A DNA stretch of 64,000 bases, taken from contig CAVYTU010000011.1 of assembly GCA_963771465.1 (NCBI GenBank), forward strand, positions 32,001-96,000, given 5' to 3'. Source of the DNA: an uncultured delta proteobacterium (GTDB lineage: Bacteria; Desulfobacterota; Binatia; UBA9968). The notes beneath the pieces were generated by a model. It ran no database searches. It saw nothing but the letters and a program-made list of their open reading frames with translations, and was not told the DNA's origin. Shown piece after piece: positions 48,497 to 50,549 of this stretch; positions within the stretch are counted from its first letter, which is position 1, and each line of letters opens with the position of its first letter. Position numbers and translations under genes: made by a program.

Positions 48497-50549
48497 ATGA
48501 TCATGAACATTTGGTCCAATCGCCGGTTGAATCTCGCCAGTATCGGCTACCGGTTGCGGCAAAGTGGGTTGCTGGAGCCGTCGCCGGGTCCCACGAGCCG
48601 CCGCCGTATTCGGGTGTTTGGGCTGGTTTTCTTAGTTGCTGGTTGCACCAGCTTGTTCTATACCTTCATCCGTCCGGCGATCTACCGCGCCACCGCACGG
48701 CTTGAAGTCACGCCTGCGTTGGCCGCTCCCCAGAACAAAGACAAAGTTTCGATCTCGGTGGGCGAGAAAGGTTCGCAAGCTTTTCTTACCGAAGTTCAGG
48801 TGCTCACGAGCCGGCCGCTTCTGGAAAAAGTAGCCGAGCGTCTGAGCAAATCGACCAGCCTGGCGCAAGATCTCGGCGCCGATGCGGTGACGCGCATGCA
48901 GCAAATGCTCGCCGCCTCGCCGGTGGAAGGGACCAACGTCGTACTGTTGAGCGCCGAGGGCCGACAGCGTGAATTCTTGCCGGAGCTCGTTAACATGGTT
49001 GCCGAAGTCTACCGCGATCAACTCATCGAAACGTTCCAGAGCGCGACGCGCAACGCGTCGGGAGGCGCGGGTGAAGAGGTGCGCGTCTTGGCCAAAAAAA
49101 TAGCCGAGAAACGCGAAGTCGTGGAAGCTTATCGCTTGCTCCACAACATCGTATCGCTGGAGCGAGATGAGAATCAGGTGTTGTCGGGTTTGAAAGGTTT
49201 GGGCACGTCGCTCAATGCCGCCAATGACCGGGCGGCGAGCGCGGAAGGAAAGCTTCAAGCGATAAAAAGCTCCATGGCAGCAGGCAAGTCCGTGGTGCGC
49301 GCTAAGGATAACCCAACGATCGCCAACATGGAGCAGCGTGCCTCACAGATCAAAGAGGAGCTGCGCGATCTCGAACGGCGCTTCACGCCTCAATACATGG
49401 CTAAAGACCCGCAAATCAAATCAATGCGAGCGCGGCTGGAAAACCTCGATCAGCAGATTAAAGCTGAGCGCCAGGCGAGCCAAAAGGCCGCTTTAGATGA
49501 AGCTCAAGAAGAACTCATGAGCGCGCGCGAGGCGATCAATCGGCTACGCCAACAGCTAACGAACGACAAGCAATCGGCGCAGGCTTTTACCTCGCGTTTT
49601 AACGAATACAAGTCGATGCAGAGAGGAGTTGAACCAGTTGGAAAGCGCCCATCGTGCCGCGCAAGAGCGTTTGGCCAATCTCGAGGCGAGCGCGCGAACG
49701 CGCAGGCCACAGTTACAAATTCTCGAGGCGGCGACAGTGCCGCTCGAGCCGTCGAGCCCACACTATCTGCGCGACGCCGGCATCAGCGTGGTCGGCTCGC
49801 TAGTGCTCGCGTTTATGGCCGCGTTGCTGGCCGATTTTTTCTACCGCGGCGAGCCCCAGCCGGCCATGGTAATGACGCAACCCTGGATATCTGTGCCGTT
49901 CTCCCGTGAGATCGACGTGACGCAAGCGCAGGCGCTGCCGAGAGCACCGGTCAACGCGTTGCCGCCGGCGCAACCGGCGCCGCGGGAGCTTTCCCAGGAG
50001 GAACTCTCGGCACTGCTCACCGCCGGTACCGACGACGGTCGAATAGCGGTCGCGGGTTTGCTGATAGGTCTCACGTGTGATGAATTGATAAAACTCTGTT
50101 GGCACCATGTTGACCTCGATGGCGGTAAAATTCATGTCGCTGGAGATTCGCAGCGCAACTTGGCAGTGAATGAAACATTGGCCCATTTTCTGAATTCCGT
50201 CCGCGGTGATGCCAACCAACCGGAGACCACCGTCCTCAGCGACGGACAGGGCAAACCATTCACGGTCGACGATGTCAGAACTTTGATCGTCTACACGTCA
50301 CTCGATGCCGGGATTGAGCACGCGCAGGAGATCACGCCTCAAGCCATTCGCTACAGCTACCTCGCGTTTCTTTTGAGCCAGGGCGTTCGCTTCGCCGATA
50401 TTGGTAGAATCGTCGGACGGCTTACCACCGACGAGATGGCGGCGTGCGCTGGGTTGGTCTCACCACAATTGCAACATGTGCCGCTGGAGCAGGTCGAACG
50501 AATCGTGCCTGCGCTGCGCGATTTCAAGTTTGCGGAACGCGCCATCTGA
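48497..50549 (+). CDS. Wzc/GumC-like polysaccharide co-polymerase domain fused to a degenerate tyrosine-recombinase domain (frameshift near 49622)
   Basis: TM1+PAIYRATARL, long coiled coil, ILEAATVP.EP.SP+TM2; then LSQEEL, GLTCDEL..L.W..VDL, TPQAIRYSY...GV....I..IVGR. Confidence 0.8.

Follow-up and report, generated by a model that had tools for sequence, protein, structure and literature searches.

Why should a protein built like a polysaccharide co-polymerase (PCP) end, on the cytoplasmic side of the membrane, in the catalytic domain of a DNA recombinase? The question is raised by a gene at positions 48497-50549 (plus strand) of a 64,000-nucleotide stretch of DNA from an uncultured delta proteobacterium (assembly GCA_963771465.1, contig CAVYTU010000011.1, positions 32,001 to 96,000), which as a whole is called the window here. 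PCP forms are thought to be few: Wzz, Wzc with its fused kinase, forms with a split kinase, and KpsE. The original prediction, made from the DNA letters and their translations, described the gene product as an orphan Wzc-like protein in which a degenerate tyrosine recombinase replaces the bacterial tyrosine kinase (BY-kinase) and couples an envelope signal to DNA binding. Our analysis keeps the architecture and changes the proposed job. The protein belongs to a widespread, so far undescribed form of PCP, and we give a probability of about 0.5 to the reading that it is an accessory co-polymerase of an XrtA/PEP-CTERM-type Wzy-dependent exopolysaccharide pathway, with a tail exapted to a noncatalytic role.

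The tail is a true homologue of the catalytic domain of Xer recombinases. The Pfam family Phage_integrase (PF00589) matches residues 147-262 of the second of the gene's two open reading frames (ORF1 and ORF2) with an E value of 3.9e-5 and 23.9 bits, just below the cut-off of 27.1, and precomputed PF00589 matches are found on many homologues. A profile built from alignment A4, which joins the window tail to the tails of 64 related loci (65 sequences), matched XerA (3.8e-15), an archaeal XerC-like protein (1.5e-14), IntI4 (2.9e-12), and XerD (4.1e-11) in the PDB. The AlphaFold2 model of the tail has a predicted local distance difference test score (pLDDT) of 88 and a predicted template modelling score (pTM) of 0.86, and its top Foldseek match was again XerA (E 4.6e-8, TMq 0.68). 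Among the matches listed after XerA were Xer, integron, phage/lambda, and transposon integrases, Cre, and the repressors MrpR (8a0a) and SroF (9rgl). Because sequence and fold agree, the homology is established, and a tyrosine-recombinase domain does stand in the place of the BY-kinase, as had been proposed. The core-binding (SAM-like) N-terminal domain is missing, and the catalytic domain is instead immediately preceded by the second transmembrane helix (TM2) and a disordered linker. Mean pairwise identity across the family is 0.51 in the tail, 0.55 in the periplasmic part, and 0.39, the lowest value, in the linker. The tail is conserved about as well as the periplasmic part and therefore does something under selection. 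A homo-oligomer prediction of the tail (four copies, residues 12-199 of A4) gave scores of 0.02 and 0.27 against a mark of 0.42 and is used neither for nor against self-association.

The remainder of the protein has the PCP layout of Wzc. Pfam Wzz (PF02706) matches ORF1 with an E value of 1.9e-7 and 31.7 bits, above the cut-off of 25.5, and hydropathy marks two hydrophobic segments. The AlphaFold model of the homologue P0001, a protein of 681 amino acids (aa) that is 90% identical to ORF2 over 99% of the length of ORF2, has a mean pLDDT of 80 and shows, in order, a first transmembrane helix (TM1, residues 30-56), an alpha/beta base, very long helices (158-399), TM2 (421-447), a disordered linker (449-487), and a compact C-terminal domain (498-673). 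With this full-length model Foldseek found Wzc (1.1e-8), as well as WzzE and KpsE, and separately XerA. The comparison suggested with the original prediction, of the C-terminal part with XerD and integrases and of the N-terminal part with Wzz and Wzc, therefore returned matches for both by profile, Pfam, and Foldseek. The characteristic N-terminal motif is present too, but as P-x-x-Y-x-A-x-A and not in the PxYxAxA form first reported. As also reported, a pattern search of both parts found no Walker A motif in ORF1 or ORF2 and no C-terminal Tyr cluster, with no Tyr within the last 40 residues. The protein thus shares with class PCP-2a the two transmembrane helices around a periplasmic Wzz-type helical domain (Pfam, hydropathy, model, and Foldseek); the C-terminal BY-kinase of that class is absent, and recombinases are matched in its place. 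Among NCBIfam families, the N-terminal part is best matched by TIGR03007 (pepcterm_ChnLen) and EpsF (TIGR03017). The TIGR03007 match of the window protein (E 6.6e-15, 54.3 bits) lies far below the cut-off of 278.85, and P0001, P0013, and P0038 likewise remain below it; because scores of 47-61 bits stand against a cut-off of 279, we regard the window protein as a distant paralogue of TIGR03007 and not as a member. The parts of the gene are laid out as follows, in window coordinates.

48497-49621, plus strand: N-terminal reading frame, with the cytoplasmic N-terminus, TM1, and the periplasmic Wzz-type PCP domain with its long helices (ORF list, Pfam, P0001 model).
48614-48670, plus strand: TM1, at ORF1 residues 40-58, the top Kyte-Doolittle segment and the first transmembrane helix of the P0001 model.
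49620-49622, no strand: extra base that splits the gene in the assembly.
49623-50549, plus strand: C-terminal reading frame (listed as ORF2 from 49629), with the end of the periplasmic helices, the Pro-rich segment, TM2, the linker, the Xer-like tail, and the stop codon.
49770-49844, plus strand: TM2, with the Pro-rich VPLEPSSP segment before it, at ORF2 residues ~48-72 (hydropathy peak at 50-68), the second transmembrane helix of the P0001 model.
49845-49979, plus strand: Pro-rich linker of ~45 residues between TM2 and the tail, predicted to be disordered (pLDDT below 50 in the P0001 model).
49980-50546, plus strand: cytoplasmic tail, homologous to the Xer-type tyrosine-recombinase catalytic domain but degenerate and acidic (profile against the PDB, AlphaFold2 model, Foldseek).

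That these parts form one gene has to be argued, since the ORF list of the window gives two overlapping plus-strand frames (ORF1, 48497-49909; ORF2, 49629-50549). The sensible reading of ORF1 stops at 49621, and its continuation lies one base out of frame, near CAGAGAGGAG; homologues read through in frame. Logan contigs of four soil/rhizosphere metagenome runs, from four studies, were aligned to positions 48400-50650. One base at 49620-49622 is missing in all five contigs that bridge the site, from four of four runs, and these contigs make up all of the depth there: one contig in run X1 (5.69 of 5.69), one in X2 (8.43 of 8.43), two in X4 (7.22 plus 4.34 of 11.6), and one in X5 (3.87 of 3.87). 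The loose end of one X5 contig is in frame straight through, like P0001. In other respects the bridging contigs differ from the window by 1-18 letters per 210-448 bases. At least three of the runs are independent, because one may be the window's own source sample. Since the base is absent from every bridging contig, it is either a consensus error of the assembly or a private mutation, and the gene is whole in the environmental population. The fused gene of about 680 aa, predicted by joining the two frames across an extra base near 49622, is thus borne out both by the metagenome contigs and by full-length fused homologues. A full-length family ORF is likewise absent in 8 of 80 related loci (L013, L020, L040, L047, L054, L068, L074, and L077); several of these broken loci are from long-read soil metagenome-assembled genomes (MAGs), a hint that assemblies of this kind often contain indel errors. 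Six RNA runs match small shares (0.05-0.19) of the stretch, from which we draw no claim of expression.

How much of the recombinase survives in the tail was assessed by transferring the six catalytic positions via the XerA alignment and counting them in the 65 sequences of A4. The Arg-I column holds R in 7 sequences, with S in 25 and T in 18. The Lys column never holds K. The His-II column, three residues before Arg-II, holds H once, and the His/Trp-III column holds H in 4 sequences, R in 30, and P in 16. By comparison, Arg-II is R in 60 of 65, the Tyr column is Y in 64 of 65, and the hairpin Arg is invariant (65 of 65). At most three of the six catalytic residues occur together in any one sequence. 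At R-K-H-R-H/W-Y the window tail itself reads T, no K, Q, R, R, C, and three of these positions can be placed on the DNA.

50073-50075, plus strand: Thr codon at the Arg-I position (GLT for GLR), from the XerA alignment.
50349-50351, plus strand: retained Arg-II codon (QAIR for HxLR).
50445-50447, plus strand: Cys codon TGC at the position of the nucleophilic Tyr.

The substitutions first reported (GLT for GLR, QxxR for HxxR, VGR for LGH, and Cys for Tyr) are all present in the window sequence and in the alignment. The accompanying claim that the nucleophile is lost is correct for the clade of the window and incorrect for the family, which keeps Tyr: Cys occurs only in the window and its relatives P0001-P0006, and Leu occurs in P0043. 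The catalytic loss is in turn conserved nearly family-wide for Arg-I, Lys, His-II, and His-III, and not for Arg-II and Tyr. The ancestral state at the nucleophile position is taken as Tyr from 64 of 65 family sequences and the canonical recombinases rather than from a rooted tree. Because Arg-I, Lys, His-II, and His-III are gone, the tail is unable to cut DNA. The conservation of Arg-II and Tyr suggests that a remnant pocket still matters.

The surface of the tail has changed along with its active site. Its net charge is about -11 (-10 to -11) and its isoelectric point 4.8, and family tails have a median net charge of -6 (range -12 to +1). Over the same aligned stretch, four ordinary recombinases of the same genome carry +14, +2, +6, and +10, a small control at four sequences. 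Thirteen columns are basic in at least three of these four recombinases; the family is basic in 2 of the 13, the hairpin Arg and Arg-II, and has lost the other 11, while one of the 13 is now 78% acidic in the family. Because the tail is acidic, its basic face is gone, and the core-binding domain is missing, DNA binding has most likely been lost, and the claim that the tail binds DNA is a part of the original prediction that the evidence does not support.

The fusion itself is conserved in homologues, as the original prediction had asked to be checked. ORF2 matches 44 longer proteins of 557-711 aa at identities from 90% down to 31%, many with precomputed Wzz and Phage_integrase matches; their source names are only 'GumC family protein', 'ExoP', and similar, and ESM Atlas clusters carry only 'hypothetical protein' or 'putative GumC family protein'. 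When one genome per species was scanned, relatives proved to be encoded at 186 loci. Eighty of these were kept, 72 of them with a full-length ORF, and the tail is present in all 80. The carriers are MAGs of Alpha-, Beta-, and Gammaproteobacteria, one MAG each labelled Verrucomicrobiia and Gemmatimonadota, and the cultured strains Aromatoleum anaerobium LuFRes1, A. buckelii U120, and Thauera phenolivorans ZV1C. A search of 1.84 billion cluster representatives with the tail profile returned 261 clusters (50% identity) at E<=1e-30, and in all of the 150 clusters listed the tail is C-terminal. The genome of the window has one copy. Free-standing tail proteins of ~130-530 aa were considered and are read as fragments: seven that were read start in or just before the post-TM2 linker, five of them without a Met start, and P0056, which begins with Leu and no Met, is likewise read as a fragment. 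A search of the full-text literature, with supplementary domain-architecture tables outside its scope, found no description of a fusion of a co-polymerase with a recombinase.

What this family might do is indicated less by its neighbours than by its company within genomes. At the window locus the flanking genes encode a glyoxalase, an unknown lipoprotein-like ORF, a GH19-like protein, DUF456, an alpha/beta hydrolase, endonuclease III, and a radical SAM protein, all unrelated to polysaccharides. None of the 10 flanking ORFs scanned (46198-55029) is a wza or wzy gene, as had been stated, so the neighbouring outer-membrane polysaccharide export gene (Wza) of a PCP-2a locus is absent here. In 5 of 72 loci (L022, L029, L052, L053, and L067) the gene lies directly behind one for a Wzy_C/DUF5935 protein, overlapping or touching its 3' end, and in the rest, as in the window, it lies elsewhere. 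That neighbour is PEP_O_lig_1 (TIGR03097, 'putative O-glycosylation ligase, exosortase A system-associated', 558 bits). An apparent natural fusion with PEP_O_lig_1 in L052, a 1116-aa ORF, was rejected as a frame-shift artefact, the PEP_O_lig_1 similarity ending at residue 352 of 440. In five other loci (L012, L015, L038, L041, and L043) a protein of 499-1160 aa with VanZ, DUF4962, and heparinase II/III-like parts is encoded directly upstream. These five belong to Burkholderiales or Casimicrobiaceae, and a GMC oxidoreductase is often found downstream.

Given the five loci behind PEP_O_lig_1, we asked whether the family occurs together with the XrtA-type system, the basis of flocs and biofilms in bacteria of soil and wastewater (Accumulibacter, Thauera, and Aromatoleum, for example). 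Of 50 carrier genomes, 37 have PEP_O_lig_1 above cut-off and 36 have XrtA above cut-off; for PEP_O_lig_1, the figure among 300 genomes sampled at class level around Aromatoleum is 43. An order-level sample of 401 genomes contains XrtA above cut-off in 116 and the tail in 14; XrtA is present in 14 of 14 carriers versus 102 of 387 noncarriers (Fisher 1.6e-8, or 2.4e-6 without the four carriers known beforehand). In the window's phylum the tail occurs in 3 of 301 sampled genomes and PEP_O_lig_1 above cut-off in 6, with all three carriers among the six (Fisher 4.4e-6, or 2.2e-4 if two congeneric carriers are counted once). The background tallies include genomes flagged as unpublished (class sample/order sample G491, G646; G940, G675, G1025). 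Carriers are strongly enriched for an XrtA/PEP-CTERM-type exopolysaccharide locus, especially PEP_O_lig_1. The label 'orphan' therefore suits the window locus, which has no polysaccharide neighbours, and does not suit the biology.

The genome of the window has an XrtA/PEP-CTERM-type exopolysaccharide locus on the minus strand of contig C8 at ~10000-47000 (loci L097 and L098), with a TIGR03007 chain-length determinant (288 bits), a TIGR03013 priming transferase, a TIGR03087 glycosyltransferase, a pepcterm-type ATPase, an export protein, and PEP_O_lig_1 (TIGR03097, 439 bits); the four TIGR families score above their cut-offs. The locus also holds a free-standing BY-kinase-like gene (C8:38317-38916, 173 bits), and two further BY-kinase-like domains are fused. 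Three Poly_export genes (on C8, C9, and C15) each adjoin another PCP, with a kinase domain in all three pairs, and the protein discussed here is a fourth, unpaired PCP. A separate oddity of this genome is the length of its PEP_O_lig_1 ORF (C8:16839-18851, minus strand; L097:8842-10851), which is 670 aa as against ~440 aa elsewhere; the TIGR03097 match is limited to residues 2-404, and the ~265-aa C-terminal extension is unexplained.

The reading that we put at about even odds would run as follows. The protein would oligomerise in the inner membrane like Wzz and Wzc, its BY-kinase having been replaced by an exapted Xer-type catalytic domain on a disordered tether of ~45 residues. It would serve as an accessory co-polymerase for PEP_O_lig_1, the Wzy_C-family membrane protein that is its probable partner, and the tail would be a protein-binding or regulatory module at the place of the Wzc kinase ring. 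Both the pairing with PEP_O_lig_1 and the function given to the tail are proposed from co-occurrence, occasional adjacency, and analogy.

Several observations weigh against this account. Near-invariant Tyr and Arg-II show selection at the old active site, which treating the tail as an adaptor leaves unexplained, and the overall net charge leaves room for a local basic patch. The gene has no conserved neighbour: the commonest neighbour cluster occurs at 9 of 80 loci, and in Pfam tallies of 247 flanking ORFs (the two nearest of at least 150 aa per side; 123 upstream and 124 downstream) no family appears more than six times. Searches of the 99%-complete assembly with TIGR03109 and PF09721 found no exosortase, and an obligatory link to the exosortase itself is accordingly rejected for this genome. 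Three Wza-PCP pairs with a BY-kinase domain are already present there, so it is hard to see why a fourth PCP would be needed. Since related genomes are not independent, the Fisher values make the association look stronger than it is; four of the 14 order-sample carriers had been identified as carriers beforehand; and about 10 of 50 carriers, of unknown genome completeness, are without both XrtA and PEP_O_lig_1.

The rival explanations differ in how much of the recombinase they keep alive. An active, membrane-anchored site-specific recombinase would account for the fold and for the Arg-II and Tyr of most members, yet it would have to work with Lys missing in every sequence, with His-II, His-III, and Arg-I nearly so, and without a core-binding domain, and among the 25 commonest Pfam families of flanking ORFs on either side there is no mobile-element family; this reading is close to refuted. 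A dead recombinase fold that still binds DNA, as a membrane-tethered regulator or chromosome anchor, was the earlier view. It can point to the existence of recombinase-fold proteins that bind DNA without catalysis, the nearest precedent being MrpR (YopR), an inactive recombinase fold put to another use (PMC10516654). It can also point to MrpR and SroF among the Foldseek matches, to the conservation of Arg-II, the hairpin Arg, and Tyr, and to a linker long and flexible enough in the P0001 model to bring the nucleoid within reach of the tail. Against these stand the negative charge of the window tail and of the family beside the positive charge of four real recombinases, the loss of nearly all of the basic columns and the turning acidic of one, the occupation of the place of the core-binding domain by TM2 and the linker, and a co-occurrence with polysaccharide genes that points elsewhere, all of which make DNA binding very doubtful.

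Other explanations start from the conserved Tyr or from the extra base. By analogy with the Tyr cluster of Wzc, the Tyr, on a mobile C-terminal helix, might be phosphorylated by a separate BY-kinase and so control the oligomerisation or activity of the co-polymerase. Its retention despite the loss of four catalytic partners would fit, as would the BY-kinase-like domains of the carrier genome, one free-standing and two fused. The window and P0001-P0006 with Cys and P0043 with Leu do not fit, because the tail is still conserved there (identity 0.68 within the Cys clade), and no kinase gene is consistently adjacent; the Cys clade makes such a switch unlikely as a general rule, and we think it rather improbable. 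A broader version, to which we would give similarly long odds, is that the remnant pocket of Arg-II, hairpin Arg, and Tyr could be a signalling site that binds a phosphorylated ligand or is phosphorylated by a BY-kinase, thereby setting how the co-polymerase oligomerises or how active it is, and with that the control it would exert on PEP_O_lig_1-dependent polymer assembly in XrtA-type exopolysaccharide systems. If true, Wzy-dependent pathways would be regulated on a principle not seen before, and the recombinase fold would have its first role away from DNA. Finally, the gene could be a pseudogene in this strain, the extra base being a true mutation in a decaying locus. The base is in the assembly, a broken sensor-kinase remnant with an in-frame stop and several frame breaks lies ~4 kb upstream (44023-45842), and within the Cys clade conservation is somewhat lower in the tail (0.68) than in the remainder (0.80). 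However, near-identical contigs from four runs, with 0-4 other differences per 200-450 bases, lack the base, both halves are otherwise open and closely match an intact homologue, and the 8 of 80 loci without a full-length ORF, many from similar MAGs, suggest consensus indel errors. We consider decay unlikely, though worth bearing in mind.

Some features of the surrounding DNA deserve mention in their own right. An intact 1317-aa hybrid sensor kinase (39958-43911) is followed at its 3' end by a second, broken hybrid kinase remnant (43911-45842, plus strand). It has HATPase_c at 44023-44637, then a receiver domain that an in-frame stop (45207-45209) breaks in two, and then Hpt; there are at least two further frame breaks, and a HisKA domain was not found. 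The remnant is either a decaying duplicate or a patch of assembly consensus errors. A 185-aa protein (47403-47960, minus strand), 0.5 kb upstream of the gene, has a weak GH19 match (chitinase class I/lysozyme-like, E 1.1e-7). Between the endonuclease III and radical SAM genes is a 118-aa ORF (53611-53967, plus strand) with a basic N-terminus and a long low-complexity tail rich in Ala, Glu, and Lys, for which a Pfam search gave no match. For the endonuclease III itself, the closest named matches belong to MAGs labelled 'Deltaproteobacteria bacterium' (86%) and 'Candidatus Binatia bacterium' (84%).

The family adds a co-polymerase form in which a catalytically dead, exapted Xer domain is the cytoplasmic module. 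It is conserved in at least 186 species-level genomes from several phyla and is statistically tied to the XrtA/PEP-CTERM exopolysaccharide system. It is a tractable example of how an envelope machine can take over the fold of a DNA enzyme, and it gives a handle on the control of chain length or ligation in a poorly understood pathway, where genetics is possible because cultured carriers exist.

The protein can be set beside several known systems. Wzc of E. coli (PDB 7nhr, 9r62/9r68) has the same TM1, periplasmic alpha/beta base with long helical domain, Pro-rich segment, TM2, and cytoplasmic C-terminal domain of ~200 aa. The window protein differs in lacking the P-loop BY-kinase and the Tyr cluster, in deriving its cytoplasmic domain from Xer, in having a disordered linker between TM2 and the tail, and in having no adjacent wza. 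The TIGR03007 chain-length determinants of XrtA systems are, with EpsF, the nearest families for the PCP part, and carriers of the present family usually hold an XrtA-type locus as well; canonical TIGR03007 members have no Xer-like tail and are located inside the locus next to a separate kinase. GumC-type PCPs also have the PCP layout without a BY-kinase, and UniRef and the Atlas call members 'GumC family protein', whereas the present family has a conserved folded domain of ~185 aa. GumC itself is not known to have a structured cytoplasmic domain. On the recombinase side, XerA (5hxy), the XerC-like protein (4a8e), and XerD (1a0p) share with the tail the catalytic-domain fold, the box I and box II patterns, Arg-II, and mostly Tyr; the tail is distinguished by the absence of the core-binding domain and of Arg-I, Lys, His-II, and His-III, by its acidity, and by its membrane tether. 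MrpR (PMC10516654) and SroF (bioRxiv 10.1101/2025.11.27.690993), both recombinase-fold phage repressors, likewise reuse the tyrosine-recombinase fold without recombinase function. They are soluble DNA-binding prophage repressors, whereas the present tail, acidic and without the N-terminal domain, forms part of an envelope protein and is found in nonmobile contexts.

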